This document shows, piece after piece, positions 1 to 7,220 of a DNA stretch of 9,734 nucleotides. The notes beneath the pieces are model-generated. The model saw only the letters and a program-made list of their open reading frames with translations. It had not been told where the DNA came from and did not search any database. The translations under genes and the position numbers were made by a program. This DNA is from a virus (Duplodnaviria > Heunggongvirae > Uroviricota > Caudoviricetes): positions 1 through 9,734 of IMG/VR virus record IMGVR_UViG_2681813004_000016; one strand, 5' to 3'. Position 1 is the stretch's first letter; each line of letters opens with the position of its first letter.

Positions 1-613
<613 letters not shown>

Positions 614-810
614 GCAGAAACTCCGTAATGAAGATGAAAAGCGCTCATAACACATCTGTCGGCCAGAAGGCGCGCCTCTGAGTTATCCTACGGACATACC
701 GGGAACAGTGTAATTTCCCGGCAGGAGCGAAAAATTTGAAAGGCGCATCTTACTCTTTTCGCTTTCAAAAAAAGAGTGGTCTTCGCGTTAACACACCGCC
801 CTGAGATGAA

Positions 811-1284
811 TTAGTGATGTTTTGGCTGCACCGCAACATACATTTCGATATCCCAGTACCCATCTTCCGCGCCATTGTTCAAGTAAACCTCGAAGCAGGG
901 CTTTGGTAACATTTCATAAGCACTGTCCTGCAAGAGGCTATTAAAGAACTGATACCAGGGTTTAGCAAAATCATCACCGACTACACGAGCCACCGCCACC
1001 GCATACTGACCACCTAAAATTTCTGTCAGAATGACGCCCTCACTGTTGTCGGGGAGCGTAAAGTTATTCGGCACCGTCACGACGGTGTCGCAGCGTAATT
1101 TTTCGGCGGGTGTTTCATCTGGATTGTCGTAATAGACAGCAACCCACTCCTTCGGCACAATATTTTTGTTATCTACCCACATCATCAACTGCTCAAAGCC
1201 TTTCTTTACCGTCTGTTCCCACGGGCCAACAAGATGGAAACCTGCAACGGTACGTTTATCTTCCTGCTTAATCTCGTAGTTCAT
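811..1284 (-). CDS. sbmC: DNA gyrase inhibitor SbmC (GyrI)
   Basis: 157-aa [27 protein letters not shown]...YVAVQPKHH matches E. coli SbmC in length and sequence as recalled. ATG start with GGAGG RBS; synteny yeeA-sbmC-dacD as in E. coli K-12. Confidence 0.95.
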
Positions 1285-1300
1285 GACGCCTCCACTAACA

Positions 1301-1316
1301 CTGTTTTTATATACAG
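1301..1316. promoter_or_regulatory. LexA (SOS) box CTGT-N8-ACAG immediately upstream of sbmC
   Basis: Sequence caCTGTttttatatACAGta at 1299-1318 fits the LexA consensus TACTGTATATATATACAGTA. It lies about 17 nt upstream of the sbmC start codon. sbmC is a known SOS-inducible gene. Confidence 0.7.
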
Positions 1317-1402
1317 TATAGTTGCAATATTAAAACCACAAGGAATGAGTGTTGATTATGCGAGCAGACTCGCACTCCTGCCAGTCTGCTGCAAAAGAAA
1401 GG

Positions 1403-2569
1403 TCAGGCCTTATGGTGGAAATAATCACTCAGGCGGGAAAACATGCTGCCTTCCCCGACAGATTCCAGGGTAACCAGCGGCCAGTGCGCCACCTGTTTAT
1501 CACGGTCGTAAAGTTCAATTTCCCCTACCCGCTGATGGGCGCTAATTGGCGCGGTGAGTTCTTTACCATCAAGGGTATATTTGGCTTTGATATGTGGAAT
1601 TTCGGCTTTCGGTAGCACCATCCAGAACTCTTGTTCCGTTCCCAGAGCGATATTTTCTTTATCACCATACCAGATGCGTTCCGTACCGACCTTTTTCCCA
1701 CGGTGCAAAATTTGCACCGTAGTAAAGTTTTGTTGCCCCCAACGCAGTAATTTTCTTGCCTCTTCCTCACGACCTTTTGCACTGTCAGCACCCATTACCA
1801 CTGCAATGAGGCGACGCTGCCCGTCTACAGCCGAAGCAATGAGATTAAACCCAGCACCAGAAGTATGACCCGTTTTCAGGCCGTCAACATTCATGGTTTT
1901 ATCCCACAATAACCCGTTACGGTTTTGCTGGGTGATACCGTTCCAGGTGAGGCTTTTCTCACTGTACATATGATAAAACTCGGGCTCGCCGTGGATGATA
2001 GCGCGAGAAAGCACAGCTAAATCATAAGCCGAGCTATGCTGGCCAGGTGCATCCAGACCATGCACTGTTTCAAAATGCGTATCCTTGAGATGCAGCTTCT
2101 CGGCATAGTTGTTCATCATTTCAACAAACTGCCGTTGCCCACCGGCAATATAGTCAGCCAGTGCAACACAAGCGTCATTTCCGGAATCCACAATTAAACC
2201 ACGGCTTAAATCACGTACCGATACGCGATCGCCCTCTTTCAAAAACATCAGTGAAGAACCGACAAACACCGGATTATCTTTCGCCCACGCATCACGCCCC
2301 ACGGTGACAATATCGTCCGGCGTAATGCGATGACTATCGATAGCGCGATCCACGACATAGCCCGTCATCAGCTTTGTCAGGCTGGCGGGATTGCGCTGTT
2401 GATGCTCATTACCCGCGGTGAGAATCTGACCGGTAGTGTAATCCATCAATACCCAGGACCCGGCATGAATCTCTGGAGGTTGAGGTGAAAAAGGGATGTT
2501 TTCCGCCGCAAAACCAGACGATAAATTAAAAACGAACAAAGAAGCAGCAATAATAAGACGGCGTTTCAA
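1403..2569 (-). CDS. dacD: D-alanyl-D-alanine carboxypeptidase DacD (PBP6b)
   Basis: ORF translation ...RRLIIAASLFVFNLSSGFAAENIPFSPQPP... with SxxK (ASLTK), SGN and KTG motifs, ending DYFHHKA. Matches E. coli DacD. The ORF track starts at TTG 2573-2575 (390 aa); the second TTG at 2567-2569 has GAGG 6-7 nt upstream and gives the 388-aa length recalled for DacD, so I call 2569 as the start. Confidence 0.93.
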   Translation of the reverse strand: MKRRLIIAASLFVFNLSSGFAAENIPFSPQPPEIHAGSWVLMDYTTGQILTAGNEHQQRNPASLTKLMTGYVVDRAIDSHRITPDDIVTVGRDAWAKDNPVFVGSSLMFLKEGDRVSVRDLSRGLIVDSGNDACVALADYIAGGQRQFVEMMNNYAEKLHLKDTHFETVHGLDAPGQHSSAYDLAVLSRAIIHGEPEFYHMYSEKSLTWNGITQQNRNGLLWDKTMNVDGLKTGHTSGAGFNLIASAVDGQRRLIAVVMGADSAKGREEEARKLLRWGQQNFTTVQILHRGKKVGTERIWYGDKENIALGTEQEFWMVLPKAEIPHIKAKYTLDGKELTAPISAHQRVGEIELYDRDKQVAHWPLVTLESVGEGSMFSRLSDYFHHKA

Positions 2570-2777
2570 CAGCAAACCCTCAGGTGTTTCAAATAGCTGT
2601 TCTTTTTACGGAAATACTTATGAACTGGCTGGAATAAAGTGCAAGAAAATGTGACTACTATCTCATTTTTATCTGACATGAACTGTTGCCACTCGCTGCC
2701 AAATTGTCGCGCTAAAGCTGATTAGCACGGTGATATTTGATACTCTGGCAGACAGCAGAAATAACGGATTTAACCTA

Positions 2778-2840
2778 ATGATGAATGACGGTAAGCAACA
2801 ATCTACCTTTTTGTTTCACGATTACGCGCAACACCCCTGA
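2778..2840 (+). pseudogene. sbcB: Exonuclease I (sbcB) 5' remnant: first 16 native codons, then foreign sequence and stop
   Basis: ATG ATG AAT GAC GGT AAG CAA CAA TCT ACC TTT TTG TTT CAC GAT TAC translates MMNDGKQQSTFLFHDY, the SbcB N-terminus as recalled (native continues ETFGTHPALDRP...). Here it continues AQHP then TGA at 2838-2840. Divergent from dacD as in K-12. Homology breaks at about 2825/2826. Confidence 0.75.
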
Positions 2841-2912
2841 GAACCGCCATGAACAAGGGTTTCATGATTTGTGATTTTAGTTTGGTACGCAATTTGGTAC
2901 ACAACACAATTT

Positions 2913-3158
2913 TCACTTCAGCGGGTAGTCATCAAACTCACCATAACGAGCAGCGTTAATGATGATTGGTTGCGAAACAGGAACGTGAGAACCGTCTTCG
3001 TTCTCTACATAAACCTGAATCTGGTTTTCAGGATTTACCGGGTCAGTGTCAATTTTTCCGATATAAATTTTGCCATTGGCTACGGCTTTAAAAGAACGCG
3101 CCATAGTGAAGAGTTGCGAAGGCATGCTTACCACAACATTGGCTGTAATGTCTGTCAT
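2913..3158 (-). pseudogene. P22-type tailspike (gp9) N-terminal head-binding-domain fragment, truncated after about 70 codons
   Basis: [70 protein letters not shown] matches the P22 tailspike N-terminus as recalled ([74 protein letters not shown]...). It then diverges to [11 protein letters not shown] and stops. Lies downstream of ant on the same strand, as in P22. Confidence 0.7.
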
Positions 3159-3216
3159 TTAATTTGCTCCAGATACAAGGAATCGCCGCAGCATGGCTAC
3201 GGTGAATTTTGGGCAT

Positions 3217-3239
3217 AAAAAAACCCAGCCGAAGCTGGG
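3217..3239 (-). terminator. Rho-independent terminator downstream of ant
   Basis: Plus strand reads aaaaaaa-CCCAGC-cgaa-GCTGGG; on the minus strand this is a GC stem with a 4-nt loop followed by UUUUUUU, sitting 20 nt after the ant stop codon. Confidence 0.75.
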
Positions 3240-3258
3240 TCGTTGCGTTGGTTATCTG

Positions 3259-4173
3259 TCAGTAGTTATGTACTGAAGGAGGTAATTCTTTATTCTTAAG
3301 TCTCATCCATGCGGAAAGATTCGTTGGTCCGTCTGGCTCATTGATATCAACATCTCGTGTGTGGTTTATTAAAACGTCTCTCGCCATTCCAATAACATAC
3401 GAGAACTCATGACCGTAGTCGTAGCATCTGCAGGAATAGTTCGATTGAATTTGCTTTAGCGCCGGATACAGTTCGCGGAATAATGCCTGTGAGCGGTTGG
3501 CATAATCCCATAACCATACAAGACTGTCTGTTTCTTTTGCGGAAAGCCCGTTGAGCTTCTTCTCTTGTTTGCCGATTAACTCTCCTTCAAGCGGAACGCG
3601 AGCAGCAAGTGACAGAGCTTCGGTAAACTGCTCCTCGCTGATTTCTTTATATGAACACCCAAAATGAGATTTCAGTGACGACCACATGGTGATCATCGCC
3701 TTCGCCTGTTTTTCTTTTGGCAGAGACTGACCGCGACTCATGACGAGTTGTTTAATGGCTTCCTGCTGCTCTTTGGTTATTTTGCCCGGCAACGCCTTTT
3801 TAGCTTTCGGTGTATTTCCGTAAGACCCCGTTTTACGAATGGATGGCAAAACTTCAGCTGTCACCCATTTGCGGAATTTGTGCGGGACTGAACCTTTATT
3901 GACGGCATCACGGCAGCGCAGAACCAATGTATACATACCTGATTCGCTCACAATGCTTAAATTCTGCTCACCGCCAAGGGTGTAACTTAAAGTTACTCCC
4001 TTCTCATCGTCATCAAGTGCAGTAAGCGCCTTGCGTGAGTTAGTCAGAGTTAAAGCATCACAAACATCTTTTGCTACAAACCACGGCGCACCGCACTTGT
4101 TGATGACGCGGATTTCACTGTCGCCGAATTTGAAGATGGTGAAATCGTTTTGTGCCTTTGCTATACTTTTCAT
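3259..4173 (-). CDS. ant: Phage antirepressor Ant (Bro-N/KilA-N-like N-terminal domain)
   Basis: 304-aa ORF. N-terminus [30 protein letters not shown] is a typical Bro-N-type antirepressor motif. Sits immediately downstream of an Arc-like gene and opposite a divergent Mnt-like gene, the P22 immI arrangement. Confidence 0.85.
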
Positions 4174-4246
4174 GTCAATATTTCCCGATCAGATTTGTTG
4201 ATGTAGAAGCCTCGCCAGTTCCCGCTGTCGGGGCTTCGTTATTTTT
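4174..4246 (+). ncRNA. Predicted sar-like antisense RNA covering the ant RBS and start region
   Basis: Candidate plus-strand promoter inside the ant 5' codons: -35 GTGAAA 4139-4144, 17-nt spacer, -10 TATACT 4162-4167, putting the start at about 4174. Plus-strand hairpin GAAGCC(4206-4211)/GGCTTC(4232-4237) with inner CCCG/CGGG stem, followed by TTATTTTT (4239-4246). Predicted RNA is about 70 nt and antisense to the ant RBS, as described for P22 sar. Confidence 0.4.
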
Positions 4247-4406
4247 AGAGAGCATTCCGCATTTTCTCCCGGTACTTCAACCACCAAGCAAGTCCCTGAA
4301 CCAACACTGAGTTTTCTGACATCCCCTCTTCCTTAGCGATGCGTTTCACCTCCTCCTTAAAACGGTACGGATACCGAAGAGTTGTCTTCACTTCATTCTT
4401 TTCCAT
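4245..4406 (-). CDS. arc: Arc-like ribbon-helix-helix repressor (53 aa)
   Basis: Not in the ORF track (under 60 aa). Minus strand ATG 4404-4406 to TAA 4245-4247 translates MEKNEVKTTLRYPYRFKEEVKRIAKEEGMSENSVLVQGLAWWLKYREKMRNAL. Same size and RHH pattern as P22 Arc (recalled ...PQFNLRWPREVLDLVRKVAEENGRSVNSEIYQRVMESF...). AGGAG RBS 7 nt upstream; directly upstream of ant. Confidence 0.7.
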   Translation of the reverse strand: MEKNEVKTTLRYPYRFKEEVKRIAKEEGMSENSVLVQGLAWWLKYREKMRNAL

Positions 4407-4427
4407 TGATCACTCCTTTTTACGTAA

Positions 4428-4489
4428 TGGCATTATGCCTTGAAAGCAATATGCCATCATTGAATATAAATAGCAATATGCCATCATTG
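4428..4489. promoter_or_regulatory. immI operator/promoter region: 11-bp palindrome plus two perfect 18-bp direct repeats between divergent arc-like and mnt-like genes
   Basis: Palindrome GGCATtATGCC at 4429-4439. Direct repeats AGCAATATGCCATCATTG at 4445-4462 and 4472-4489, 27 bp apart. The 7-mer ATGCCAT (reverse complement ATGGCAT) occurs three times. A candidate plus-strand promoter overlaps them (-35 TTGAAA 4440-4445, -10 TATAAA 4465-4470). Confidence 0.45.
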
Positions 4490-4508
4490 TTTTTTTTGAG
4501 GTGATGTT

Positions 4509-4829
4509 ATGGCTGAAAAGCAGGTTAAAGATTACGAAAAGTTTGTTGTGCGTTTCCCTGACGGGATGAGGGACGCGATTGCGGAGAGAGCCAAACGAAA
4601 CGGGCGCTCTATGAACTCAGAGATTGTGCAGATACTGGAAGATGCCTTGAATGCAGAAAATACTCTTGGGGAAATAGCAGACAAAATCAACAGCGTCTCG
4701 GTTCCGCTAAATGTTGATGCGCTAGTTCAACTTCAAGCCCAGGTTATCGCCATGCAAAAAGAAATACAGGAAAAGTTCAGAGAGCAGAACGAAAAGTTGA
4801 GAGAACTACTAAATAAAAAACCCACCTGA
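4509..4829 (+). CDS. mnt: Mnt-like ribbon-helix-helix repressor with C-terminal coiled coil (106 aa)
   Basis: N-terminus MAEKQVKDYEKFVVRFPDGMRDAIAERAKRNGRSMNSEIVQILEDAL carries the Arc/Mnt signature NGRSMNSE; C-terminal half is heptad-rich. GAGGTGA RBS upstream of ATG 4509. Divergent from arc-ant. Confidence 0.7.
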   Translation: MAEKQVKDYEKFVVRFPDGMRDAIAERAKRNGRSMNSEIVQILEDALNAENTLGEIADKINSVSVPLNVDALVQLQAQVIAMQKEIQEKFREQNEKLRELLNKKPT

Positions 4830-4836
4830 CGGTGGG
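4811..4836 (-). terminator. Rho-independent terminator downstream of tail gene L (overlaps the 3' end of the mnt-like gene)
   Basis: Plus strand aaataaaaaa-CCCACC-tgac-GGTGGG; on the minus strand the stem is followed by UUUUUUAUUU, 10 nt after the L stop codon (4846-4848). The mnt-like stop TGA (4827-4829) lies in the hairpin loop. Confidence 0.6.
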
Positions 4837-4845
4837 CATAATCCA

Positions 4846-5544
4846 TTACTGCGAAAGTTTGTTAATGGAAAGGAAGCCGCCAAAGTTGCCGACGTTATTG
4901 CGAAACTTACAGCCACTCAGGCATTTGCTGCATTTATCCTTCGTGATATCGGACGTTGGCTGGTCATATTCATCCGCGACAGCCGGACCGTGATAACCGC
5001 ACTCATCGCCGCGATAGGTCCAGGTGCAGGTGTTGGCCAGCATGATACGTCCCGGAAAAACAGCGCCATCTGTTTCCGTCGGCGTGGACAGTACAAAGGA
5101 GGCACTCACCGCGCTCAGTTCGCTGCACTGCTCGATGCGCCAGCGGCTGATCACCTCCTGCTCCGGATCGGCGTCACTGTTTCCGTTAACGAAGTTCACC
5201 GCATCCAGAAAACGGGCGTAAACCTTACGCCGGACCACCGTTCCGCCGACCAGACTCTGCATATCTTCCACCATACCGGTGACCATGCCGTGCAGGTTAG
5301 AAACCGTCAGTGTCGGACGGGCAGCACTGCCCTTGCCGTTCAGTTCAAATCCCGTCCCCTGAATGGGATACGCCTGATACTGTCGCCCCTGCCAGGTGAC
5401 CGGCTCACCTTTTTCGTTCTGCTCATTACAGAAAAAATAACGTTCTCCACCGACCTCTGTCAGGTCGATTTCCCAGAGCACCACGCTGGCAGACTGCTCC
5501 GCACGGGTGCATTCATTCAGTGTTTCCTGCCGGATATCCTGCAT
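4846..5544 (-). CDS. L: Lambda-type minor tail protein L
   Basis: 232-aa ORF MQDIRQETLNECTRAEQSASVVLWEIDLTEVGGERYFFCNEQNEKGEPVTWQGRQYQ...FGGFLSINKLSQ matches phage lambda gpL in sequence and length as recalled. Its start overlaps the M stop (ATGA). Confidence 0.95.
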   Translation of the reverse strand: MQDIRQETLNECTRAEQSASVVLWEIDLTEVGGERYFFCNEQNEKGEPVTWQGRQYQAYPIQGTGFELNGKGSAARPTLTVSNLHGMVTGMVEDMQSLVGGTVVRRKVYARFLDAVNFVNGNSDADPEQEVISRWRIEQCSELSAVSASFVLSTPTETDGAVFPGRIMLANTCTWTYRGDECGYHGPAVADEYDQPTSDITKDKCSKCLSGCKFRNNVGNFGGFLSINKLSQ

Positions 5545-5873
5545 CAGTTCACCACCTGTTTAAACTCTGCGCTGAACTCAACACGCAACATACTGACCTG
5601 CGACGACCATTTTGCGCAGGTCACCTTTATCTGCCTGTAACCATAAGGCGGCGTCCACAGAAAGGCCTTCCAGCCCCCGTGCTCAGCCAGAAACGACTCC
5701 AGCGCCGTGGCCTCCTCACGGGAGACAGACAGCGTCACGCTGTACGTTTTCAGGTCAGCGTTCAGCCCGGCAGGCGCACGCTGGGAATAGCCATCACCAA
5801 AGCGCACCTCCCTGACGGAAGGGGCCGATGTCACATCCATACCGGGTTTCACTTTCCAGCGGAAGGTTTTCAT
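5544..5873 (-). CDS. M: Lambda-type minor tail protein M
   Basis: 109-aa ORF MKTFRWKVKPGMDV...WTPPYGYRQIKVTCAKWSSQVSMLRVEFSAEFKQVVN matches lambda gpM as recalled; H-M-L order and overlaps as in lambda. Confidence 0.95.
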   Translation of the reverse strand: MKTFRWKVKPGMDVTSAPSVREVRFGDGYSQRAPAGLNADLKTYSVTLSVSREEATALESFLAEHGGWKAFLWTPPYGYRQIKVTCAKWSSQVSMLRVEFSAEFKQVVN

Positions 5874-6247
5874 CGTCCACCTCCGGAGAACAGGCCACCA
5901 TCACGCATCTGTGTCTGAATTTCATCACGGGCACCCTTGCGGGCCATGTCATACACCGCCTTCAGAGCAGCCGGACCTATCTGCCCGTTCGTGCCGTCGT
6001 TGTTAATCACCACATGGTTATTCTGCTCAAACGTCCCGGACGCCTGCGACCGGCTGTCTGCCATGCTGCCCGGTGTACCGACATAACCGCCGGTGGCATA
6101 GCCGCGCATCAGCCGGTAAAGATTCCCCACGCCAATCCGGCTGGTTGCCTCCTTCGTGAAGACAAACTCACCACGGTGAACAATCCCCGCTGGCTCATAT
6201 TTGCCGCCGGTTCCCGTAAATCCTCCGGTTGCAAAATGGAATTTCGC
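5870..6247 (-). pseudogene. H: Tape-measure protein H, C-terminal fragment (about 125 codons), 5'-truncated at the IS903 junction
   Basis: C-terminal translation ...GGFTGTGGKYEPAGIVHRGEFVFTKEATSRIGVGNLYRLMRGYATGGYVGTPG...MRDGGLFSGGGR matches the lambda gpH C-terminus as recalled. Upstream of about 6247 the frame reads IS903-derived sequence, so the first about 35 residues of the 160-aa track ORF are not H. Confidence 0.85.
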
Positions 6248-6779
6248 CGCAGACAACTTCATGTGTGTTGCTGTCAACAGCAAGATGCAACTTTCGCCAG
6301 ATACGACGGCGCTCTTTGCCGTGCTTTCTGACTTTCCATTCGCCTTCACCAAAGACCTTCAGCCCGGTGGAATCAATCACCAGGTGTGCGATTTCACCCC
6401 GGGTGGACGTTTTGAAACTGACATTAACCGACTTTGCCCGCTTACTGACACTGGTGTAATCCGGGCAGCGCAACGGAACGTTCATCAGGGCAAAAATGGA
6501 ATCAATAAAACCCTGCGCAGCCCGCAGGGTCAGCCGGAATACGCGTTTAATCACCAGAACGGTGGTGATGGCGAGATCAGAATAGCGCTGGGGCCTTCCT
6601 CGTGATGAAGGCGTTGCCGACTCATACCAGGCCTGAATCGCCTCATCATCCAGCCAGAAAGTGAGGGAGCCACGGTTGATGAGAGCTTTGTTGTAGGTGG
6701 ACCAGTTGGTGATTCTGAACTTTTGCTTTGCCACGGAATGGTCTGTGTTGTCGGGAGGATGCGTGATCTGATCCTTCAA
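6248..6779 (-). pseudogene. IS903-family transposase, N-terminal about 177 codons, 3'-truncated (track ORF 6195-6779 reads on into H-derived DNA)
   Basis: Transposase similarity runs from the TTG start at 6777-6779 to ...LAVDSNTHEVVC. The last 17 residues of the track ORF (GEIPFCNRRIYGNRRQI) are out-of-frame readthrough of tape-measure DNA. Confidence 0.85.
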
Positions 6780-6811
6780 CTCAGCAAAAGTTCGATTTAT
6801 TCAACAAAGCC
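6248..6811 (-). mobile_element. Truncated IS903-family insertion sequence (IS5 family): left inverted repeat plus 5' part of the transposase gene only
   Basis: Plus-strand 6793-6811 cgatttattcaacaaagcc is the reverse complement of the IS903 terminal inverted repeat GGCTTTGTTGAATAAATCG as recalled. The adjacent ORF encodes ...KQKFRITNWSTYNKALINRGSLTFWLDDEAIQAWYESATPSSRGRPQRYSDLAITTV..., the IS903/IS102 transposase N-terminus. Homology ends at about 6248, where lambda H sequence begins, so only about 564 bp of a roughly 1 kb IS remain. Confidence 0.9.
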
Positions 6812-7220
6812 CCTTAGAGCTAATTTCAGAACCACCAACACCCTCAATATAGTTTGATCTCCATGGTGACTCTTCGTGTGTCATGTTCCTCAGTTTCCAG
6901 GCAGAAAATTGCCCAAAAACATCCCAGACTTCTTCTAATAACTCTAACTGTTCTTCGCTGAATTTTTCAGCATCAAAAGACTCTGGAGAAGGGATAGCGC
7001 CATTACCATATTGTTTATAACGGCGATAAAGCTCAGGGACAACAGGGCCATGCATCCAAGCTTCCATCTTATTCTGAAAAAGAGGCTCGCCAAGCAACGC
7101 CAATGAAAAACCCTGAGCATAGTAAACAAGCTTTTGTAATTTTAAATTAGAGATTGTGTCACCGCTATCCTCGTCACACCGCGACAGGAAGTAGTCGGCG
7201 ACATCAAAACAAGTAAGCAT
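6801..7220 (-). CDS. Panacea / SocA-like (DUF4065) antitoxin-domain protein, 3' end clipped by the IS903 insertion
   Basis: MLTCFDVADYFLSRCDEDSGDTISNLKLQKLVYYAQGFSLALLGEPLFQNKMEAWMHGPVVPELYRRYKQYG... fits the SocA/Panacea pattern (hLKLQKLLYhAQGh...GEPLh...hEAWhHGPVhP.LY). Likely start is ATG 7218-7220 (GGAGG 7 nt upstream); the track used GTG at 7226. The last two codons and the stop (6801-6809) are IS903 sequence, so the native C-terminus is lost. Confidence 0.6.
   Translation of the reverse strand: MLTCFDVADYFLSRCDEDSGDTISNLKLQKLVYYAQGFSLALLGEPLFQNKMEAWMHGPVVPELYRRYKQYGNGAIPSPESFDAEKFSEEQLELLEEVWDVFGQFSAWKLRNMTHEESPWRSNYIEGVGGSEISSKGLC

Follow-up and report, generated by a model that had tools for sequence, protein, structure and literature searches.

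What kind of boundary joins a lambda-type tail module to a P22-type immI module, and what might a small hairpin at that boundary do? The question is raised by a 9,734-nucleotide (nt) stretch of viral DNA (IMG/VR record IMGVR_UViG_2681813004_000016; here, the window), in which the tail gene L is followed not by K, I and J but by a hairpin and a convergent mnt-like repressor gene. The initial annotation of this junction (4811-4848) read it as a recombination or deletion joint that might also explain why the Mnt-like protein is longer than P22 Mnt. We consider it likely that the hairpin is a Rho-independent terminator marking the upstream end of an ant moron of the immI type, a cassette that lies between L and K in a large group of lambdoid siphophages.

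Layout of the window and anatomy of the hairpin

The gene layout of the window was drawn from an open reading frame listing and a Pfam profile search. Its immI-type module has the arrangement expected from P22, with an mnt-like gene on the plus strand divergent from arc-like and ant genes on the minus strand. The mnt-like gene (4509-4829, plus strand; Pfam Arc, 1.6e-19) encodes a repressor of 106 amino acids (aa) that is 47% identical to P22 Mnt over residues 6-48 only (PDB 1mnt match, 3.2e-6). It combines an N-terminal ribbon-helix-helix domain with a C-terminal part that differs from, and is longer than, that of P22 Mnt. The arc-like gene (4245-4406, minus strand; 53 aa) holds the same place as arc in P22; its product is 38% identical to P22 Arc over 29 aa, and its Pfam Arc score of 17.5 bits lies below the cut-off of 20.4. 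Between arc and ant, in the position of P22 sar, is a sar-like antisense RNA (4175-4241, plus strand) with a full-length match to Rfam RF00262 that scores 28.5 bits (E = 0.0086), short of the gathering score, 43. The antirepressor gene ant (3259-4173, minus strand) encodes 304 aa with a BRO-N domain (Bro-N, 3.5e-19) and a P22AR C-terminal domain (P22_AR_C, 2.2e-26), and its product shares 65% identity with P22 Ant in the C-terminal half. The terminator t_ant follows (3216-3240, minus strand), ACCCAGC-TTCG-GCTGGGT plus a T-run, identical in sequence to the annotated P22 ant terminator.

Past t_ant, a fragment of a P22-type tailspike head-binding domain (2913-3158, minus strand; Pfam Head_binding, 8.7e-40) occupies the place that K has in lambdoid phages, and beyond it lie dacD (1403-2575, minus strand) and sbmC (811-1284, minus strand). 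On the mnt side is the full-length tail tip gene L (4846-5544, minus strand; 232 aa; Pfam Phage_tail_L, 8.8e-100), whose product is 96% identical to lambda L over the full length (94.7% at the nucleotide level), with both proteins ending in INKLSQ. It is preceded in the operon by the tail gene M (5544-5873, minus strand), identified from the open reading frame listing and lambda-type DNA homology, and by a 3' remnant of the tape-measure gene H (5870-6249, minus strand), which is cut by a truncated IS5-family element (6250-6821, minus strand; 99.5-99.7% identical to IS5-family copies over query positions 301-871/873). A Panacea-domain gene (6801-7226), a DNA-transfer protein fragment (7925-8278) and an NleG effector gene (8386-9033), all on the minus strand, complete the layout. 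K, I and J are absent from the open reading frame listing of the window, and searches of 5426 complete E. coli genomes with the whole window and with the junction of the H remnant, the IS fragment and the Panacea-domain gene did not find the whole arrangement in any of them, the best coverage being 66%. The window is a decayed remnant in which neither a late promoter nor Q is seen.

Between L and mnt, a terminator scan and RNA folding place a stem-loop on the L-direction (minus) strand, GCCCACC/GTCA/GGTGGGU (4820-4837). Read on the plus strand, CCCACC (4821-4826) pairs with GGTGGG (4831-4836) around a TGAC loop (4827-4830); a seventh pair, G.U (4837/4820), forms on the minus strand. The initial annotation had seen that the loop holds the stop codon of the convergent mnt-like gene and that the last residues of the 106-aa protein are encoded by the A-run and the stem, and the sequence bears out both points: AAT AAA AAA CCC ACC TGA (4812-4829, plus strand) encodes NKKPT from the A-run and the 5' arm, and the TGA (4827-4829) lies within the loop. 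The L stop codon, TAA, is at 4848-4846 on the minus strand, which leaves a spacer of 8-9 nt (4837/4838-4845) where a gap of 10 nt had been reported. The hairpin thus sits at the end of a unit in both directions: on the minus strand it follows the L stop by 8-9 nt, and on the plus strand it coincides with the mnt stop. In intact phages L is in mid-operon, as K, I and J come after the cassette.

The scan reports the minus-strand hairpin as GCCCACCGTCAGGTGGGT, then TTTTTATTTA. Directly 3' of the stem on this strand runs a U-tract (4810-4819), which reads UUUUUAUUUA after the closing U of the stem and UUUUUUAUUUA when that U is counted; on the plus strand it is the A-run encoding N-K-K of Mnt. Minus-strand RNA folds at -16.2 kcal/mol (z = -2.98), with a centroid hairpin of -13.4 kcal/mol, and its stem has the pairing of an intrinsic terminator, with seven pairs (five of them G-C) and a 4-nt loop. 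Plus-strand RNA forms a hairpin as well (z = -1.87), with the stem followed by CAUAAUCC and no U-tract. Because only the minus strand has a U-tract here, the hairpin is predicted to stop transcription in the L direction. Its 16-mer occurs once in the window, and 0 of 200 shuffles gave a match at two or fewer mismatches. An Rfam scan of 2600-6400 (E <= 1) returned no match to the hairpin; its hits were the weak one to sar and one to ctRNA that is ascribed to chance. A promoter-like match at 4865-4838 on the minus strand (9 of 12 positions) is taken as chance; it would fire directly into the terminator.

Position and distribution of the L-mnt joint

The M-L region is matched at 94-97% by lambda and by about 200 records of lambdoid phages, and these matches run no further than the stop codon of L (window 4845/4846). 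The other side of the joint can be followed in phage JLK-2012, where a copy of the mnt-arc-ant cassette lies in the nin region, between a small open reading frame after ninE and roi; this copy agrees with the window at every base up to ...GGTGGGCATAATCC (4844), and past that point the two are unrelated. Because lambda homology stops at 4845/4846 and JLK-2012 cassette identity at 4844, these alignments place the module joint at 4845±1, within the 8-nt spacer (4838-4845), with immI cassette up to 4844, lambda-type sequence from 4846 and the single base 4845 assigned to neither. From this position it follows that the hairpin and the entire mnt open reading frame belong to the cassette. A lambda-type tail module does meet a P22-immI-type module here, as first proposed, and the abrupt junction reported at 4811-4848 contains a real joint; the hairpin itself is not that joint.

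We next asked where else this joint occurs. The order H-M-L-mnt-arc-ant-K-I-J is found in the isolated phage vB_EcoS_phi330 (phi330) and in a prophage of E. coli PK8241, and the hairpin, the spacer and the L stop of both are identical to the window base for base. The ant-arc-mnt-L stretch is also matched in the Stx phages 2851, YYZ-2008 and 1717, in several Stx2a phages, and in PhiR12_1/4/5, and a match spanning the L/mnt joint is present in 231 of the 5426 complete E. coli genomes. Among 80 IMG/VR loci that encode Mnt relatives, mnt adjoins L in 23, with K visible too in the fetched flank of 19 of these. The identical joint recurs in IMG/VR contig L014, the mnt allele of the window is 97-100% identical in the IMG/VR lambdoid loci, and a divergent L-mnt case (IMG/VR locus L087) shows 48% Mnt and 68% L identity.

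Lambda itself and a prophage of strain Z1323CEC0010 carry the corresponding empty site, TAA-ATCCC-ATG(K). Relative to this site, the cassette (about 1.66 kb, as measured in PK8241) takes the place of about 30 nt, and in lambdoid phages it ends right after the t_ant T-run, where a new ribosome-binding site and the ATG of K begin. Set against the empty site, these limits make both edges of the cassette terminators pointing in the direction of the late operon. A 12-nt sequence, TGGGTTTTTTAT, present at both cassette ends was considered as a target-site duplication and rejected, as each copy is made up of the stem end and T-run of a terminator, the two terminators are unrelated, and the first copy lies within the cassette.

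These comparisons bear directly on whether a local recombination or deletion event removed K, I and J, fused lambda L to P22 immI and created the longer Mnt C terminus. K, I and J indeed do not come after L in the window, and the two sides of the joint differ in affinity, one lambda-type and the other immI-type. However, a viable phage and many prophages have a joint that matches this one at every base and yet continue straight from ant into K, I and J, and at 4845 the joint lies outside both the mnt open reading frame and the hairpin. The initial annotation had itself allowed that related phages with the same L-terminator-mnt order and intact K, I and J would speak for a natural mosaic rather than a deletion, and phi330 and PK8241 are such cases. 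We therefore regard an origin by local deletion as very improbable. The L/mnt joint is instead an old, common and natural mosaic boundary, neither a deletion scar nor formed in this genome.

The absence of K, I and J from the window traces to another position. Positions 61-3592 match a P22-like remnant beside dacD in strain Z1323CEC0010, with no mismatches over 2709-3453, and positions 3218-6252 match the lambdoid contig L014, which retains K and I; after 3306, a single mismatch (at 3973) separates the window from this contig. Because single-nucleotide profiles follow the Z1323CEC0010 type up to 3453 and the L014 type from 3307, a crossover can be placed within ant, at 3307-3453. The loss of K, I and J maps to this interval, which again argues against their removal at the L/mnt joint, and it is a separate event, a homologous crossover inside ant. 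At the other end, homology to L014 stops at 6252, at the IS5-family fragment, and the P22-like remnant resumes past this fragment at 99.2% identity. A lambdoid segment comprising the 5' part of ant, arc, mnt, L, M and the H remnant was thus patched into a P22-like remnant resident at dacD. The ends of this patch are the homologous crossover in ant (P22-like on the left, lambdoid donor on the right) and the nonhomologous IS5-family fragment (6250-6821). On this evidence, the real rearrangement joints of the window are these two, and not 4811-4848.

The hairpin at mnt 3' ends and its possible roles

The length of the Mnt-like protein had been attributed to the joint. The same 106-aa Mnt allele (at least 87% identity), with the same hairpin, is followed by eight different downstream sequences, the joint lies outside its reading frame, and P22 mnt ends in a similar way, with AAAAAAACCACC-TGAC-GGCGGG giving KKTT, a stop codon in the loop and a degenerate homologous hairpin. 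These results do not fit a joint that lengthened Mnt, and they count equally against a local deletion as its source. The extra length comes rather from a different C-terminal part.

This raises the question of how widely mnt genes end in such a hairpin. The 80 IMG/VR loci with Mnt relatives have 39 distinct mnt 3' ends, most with a hairpin at or just past the stop codon, and Mnt-type proteins with unrelated C-terminal parts nonetheless end in KKPT. In strain Z1323CEC0010, a 269-aa LexA-family protein in the mnt position ends ...DNKKPT within the same hairpin. Repressors that end in the hairpin thus include a LexA/S24-type protein as well as Mnt-type proteins whose C-terminal parts are of at least five unrelated kinds, and because unrelated repressors have the KKPT tail in common, we take that tail to be a consequence of the nucleic acid element. 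The hairpin is accordingly a property of the cassette and of mnt 3' ends, and not of the lambda module. It is not obligatory, since a few mnt alleles lack it (that of CUS-3 and those of IMG/VR loci L068 and L070-L074).

The exact hairpin 20-mer lies in ant-moron regions in all 80 of the IMG/VR loci examined for it, with 19 different downstream 10-mers, and an intact mnt is missing from about 35 of these 80. In most contexts other than L-K, T-runs flank the hairpin on both sides, and there it could serve chiefly as an mnt terminator. We also considered whether the hairpin is exclusive to ant morons. This was rejected in part, as the exact 20-mer also turns up in unrelated bacteria, in 31 stretches that have neither mnt nor ant close by, and in most of these a T-rich run comes after it. 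Its occurrence in unrelated bacteria means that the sequence is a generic terminator, and part of its recurrence may therefore not reflect common descent.

A recurrent element with so many neighbors could chiefly be a recombination linker, a "boundary sequence" of about 26 nt whose short shared homology lets recombinases of the phage or the host swap the flanking modules, with terminator activity secondary. The downstream flanks diverge at the base of the stem in 19 contexts; upstream, the segments joined immediately ahead of the A-run are unrelated C-terminal domains and even a gene of the LexA family; and short conserved boundary sequences have been described (Clark et al. 2001; Susskind and Botstein 1978, as cited in PMC3029335). 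Yet the breakpoint in the L-K context lies 8 nt past the hairpin and not at it, and the emergence of the 20-mer in unrelated bacteria as a generic terminator suggests that part of its recurrence may be convergence or functional retention. We regard a primary linker role as possible but somewhat doubtful. Equally tentative is a fuller form of the idea, in which the hairpin would be a dedicated linker of antirepressor cassettes that donates KKPT and a stop codon to the adjacent repressor, offers a preferred exchange point for at least 19 flanks and insulates ant in one direction.

Variation within the hairpin bears on which molecule is maintained. Across 16 hairpin variants, 97.1% of cells are paired, the closing pair being AU in seven, GC in six and GU in two. 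Wobbles occur in four cells, and each of them is a G.U pair when read in the L direction but an A.C mismatch when read on the mnt strand. This is modest evidence, resting on about three independent events, that the L-direction RNA may be the strand under selection. The A-run, which is the U-tract of the opposite strand, is the invariant part.

The same variants speak against the palindrome being a protein-binding or site-specific recombination site in DNA rather than an RNA structure. The perfect 6-bp inverted repeat at the edge of the cassette would suit such a site, but the variants preserve pairing and not sequence, as shown by GCCCAC/GTGGGC, in which the loop is shifted, by GCCCA/TGGGC and by the G.U wobbles. 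Moreover, no integrase or recombinase accompanies the cassette in phi330, PK8241 or JLK-2012, and the opposite edge is an unrelated terminator with no matching repeat. A DNA site is accordingly an extremely improbable explanation.

The mnt strand might instead be the one on which the hairpin mainly works, as the mnt terminator or as a stabilizer of the mRNA 3' end, with any effect in the L direction incidental. Hairpins at mRNA 3' ends can shield transcripts from exonucleases. Most non-lambda contexts also show a T-rich run past the stem (GGTGGGTTTTCATTTTT, GGTGGGTTTTTCTTATT and others), as in a two-way terminator. In the L-K context, however, the tail on the mnt strand reads CATAATCC and lacks a U-tract; the P22 record puts the mnt terminator after orf59a and not at the mnt stop; the four wobble cells pair on the opposite strand only; and the invariant A-run provides a U-tract for that same opposite strand. 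A role on the mnt strand is plausible where T-runs lie on both sides and weak in the context of the window, and we judge it unlikely to be the main one.

Returning to the hairpin as a terminator at the edge of the cassette, we propose the following sequence of events. The ant moron would comprise mnt, arc, sar, ant and t_ant, with mnt ending inside the hairpin, so that the KKPT codons and stop are the A-run, 5' arm and loop. Ordinary RNA polymerase arriving from the tail genes would be halted at the hairpin, before it could run antisense through mnt and in the sense direction into arc-ant. Such termination would spare mnt convergent transcription and could hold ant silent in the lysogen. Polymerase under Q- or N-type antitermination, by comparison, would be expected to pass both the hairpin and t_ant and to reach K, I and J. 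The strand preference and the efficiency of termination are likewise predictions drawn from the sequence. The cassette has been found with arc-ant co-oriented with the surrounding operon in three of three contexts, namely, the P22-like late operon, lambda L-K and the nin region. In lambdoid phages these operons are known to be transcribed by antiterminated polymerase. [quoted passage not shown] In the degraded remnant studied here, the hairpin may have no current role.

Taken together, the hairpin is probably an ordinary boundary terminator of a widespread antirepressor cassette. As a discovery it is minor, since many sequenced lambdoid phages and E. coli prophages share the arrangement, which agrees with what is understood of morons and immI. 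Its main use is in annotation. Where L-mnt-arc-ant is not followed by K, I and J, no scar at the L/mnt joint should be assumed; the actual rearrangements of the window are a prophage-prophage crossover in ant and an IS-bounded patch; and the KKPT ending that unrelated repressors share is no protein motif, being instead a by-product of an element in the DNA/RNA. Were the linker idea true, the hairpin would be a concrete and testable example of a boundary sequence in phage mosaicism, and a convenient system for studying how short conserved sequences drive module exchange among temperate phages.

Comparison with known systems

Our search of the literature available to us found no paper describing the hairpin or the L-K antirepressor cassette; it returned only the ant-moron paper on P22-like phages and broad remarks about morons and boundary sequences. 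The nearest known relative is the immI region of P22, called the "ant moron" in work on P22-like phages (Villafane et al. 2008, PMC2629481). Gene order and orientation are the same in the window and in P22, as are the t_ant sequence, a sar-like signal and a homologous mnt 3' end, KK(P/T)T with a TGAC loop. At the DNA level, P22 matches the window only in the 3' part of ant (88%), t_ant and the 5' end of the tailspike gene. Alignment with the P22 mnt 3' end recovers a degenerate copy of the hairpin, whereas the Mnt proteins align over residues 6-48 only, the C-terminal part of the window's Mnt being unrelated to that of P22 Mnt and 23 aa longer. The P22 mnt hairpin has a G.U pair and a mismatch, and the mnt terminator of P22 is annotated after orf59a. 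The surroundings differ as well. P22 immI adjoins orf59a/sieA/gene 16 and is bracketed by gene 16, which encodes an ejection protein, and the tailspike gene 9, whereas the module of the window has a tailspike fragment on one side and lambda L on the other.

Also close are the lambdoid siphophages that carry the cassette between L and K (phi330, 2851, YYZ-2008, 1717, Stx2a_F349, PhiR12_1 and the PK8241 prophage), whose cassette edges are the same as those of the window. While phi330 and PK8241 continue from ant into K-I-J, the window continues from ant into a P22-type tailspike fragment, which is found there because of the crossover in ant. The module of the window is thus the L-K form of the cassette, as found in lambdoid phages, after recombination with a remnant of P22-like type. 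Lambda itself has the same L end codon and collinear M and H, but its L-K junction is TAA-ATCCC-ATG with no insert.

More broadly, the window's cassette fits two concepts cited in PMC8065619, PMC3029335 and PMC2629481, morons bracketed by a promoter and a terminator of their own and boundary sequences at the mosaic joints of lambdoid phages. It is likewise an independently regulated set of genes within a late operon, with an intrinsic terminator on each side, and its short conserved hairpin is likewise common to many different joints. In CUS-3, by comparison, the annotated boundary sequences bsq1 and bsq2 exclude the mnt 3' end, and mnt is without the hairpin.

A crossover inside ant and the right end of the window

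Sequence comparison places a homologous crossover in window 3307-3453, inside ant; its partners were the P22-like prophage remnant residing at dacD and a segment of a lambdoid prophage. Left of this interval, the window matches the remnant in E. coli Z1323CEC0010 at 100%, extending back to 2709. To its right, L014, a lambdoid contig that still has K and I, matches the window to 6252, with a single mismatch at 3973.

A truncated IS5-family element of ~571 bp (6250-6821) interrupts two genes: at one end the tape-measure gene H, at the other a Panacea-domain (SocA-like antitoxin) gene, which is cut at its 3' end. Comparison of this latter gene (6801-7226, minus strand) with L003 8296-9163, from the Z1323CEC0010 remnant locus, indicates that the IS fragment removed its final ~35 nt; the 420-nt gene adjoining it in relatives is absent from the window. 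The arrangement of H, IS5-family fragment, and Panacea gene was absent from all complete E. coli genomes of our collection. The P22-like remnant is separated by an NleG-family type III effector gene of the U-box type (8386-9033, minus strand) from a neighbouring lambdoid prophage, whose tail-fibre end lies on this side.

Putative regulatory elements of the cassette and the hairpin at the mnt 3' end

Within the cassette, a candidate sar-like antisense RNA spans the arc-ant junction (4175-4241, plus strand); its match to Rfam RF00262 is full-length and weak, scoring 28.5 bits where the gathering score is 43. The arc/mnt intergenic region contains an 18-nt direct repeat, AGCAATATGCCATCATTG, in two exact copies (4445-4462 and 4472-4489), as well as an inverted partner at 4427-4441. 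These repeats (4427-4489) probably serve as operators for this immI allele.

In the Z1323CEC0010 remnant, the position of mnt is held by a 269-aa LexA/S24-family protein (L003 7474-8283), whose C-terminus, ...DNKKPT*, lies within the same hairpin as that of the window's mnt-like gene. The terminator-encoded tail is thus common to unrelated repressors. The exact 20-mer AAAACCCACCTGACGGTGGG is also present in 31 genome-contig stretches from unrelated species, including Pseudomonas, Halomonas, Pantoea, Erwinia, and Bacteroidales MAGs; in most of these a T-rich run follows it, and none of the 31 has mnt or ant nearby. The 20-mer seems to be a generic, recurrent terminator sequence.

Cassette position and the start of lambda K

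In L064, an IMG/VR locus from a divergent phage, tblastn matches fall in the order I, ant, arc, mnt, K, L, and the cassette therefore appears to separate K from I instead of L from K. If true, this location would represent an additional insertion context for the cassette.

In the lambda reference, K is annotated as starting at 14276. Across the region compared (L088 1133-1280, corresponding to lambda 14133-14280), an ATG at lambda 14133, 5 nt past the L stop, starts a frame matching the N-terminus of 245-aa K homologues, and this match stops at a 1-nt frame difference near GAGGCTATTTCC.
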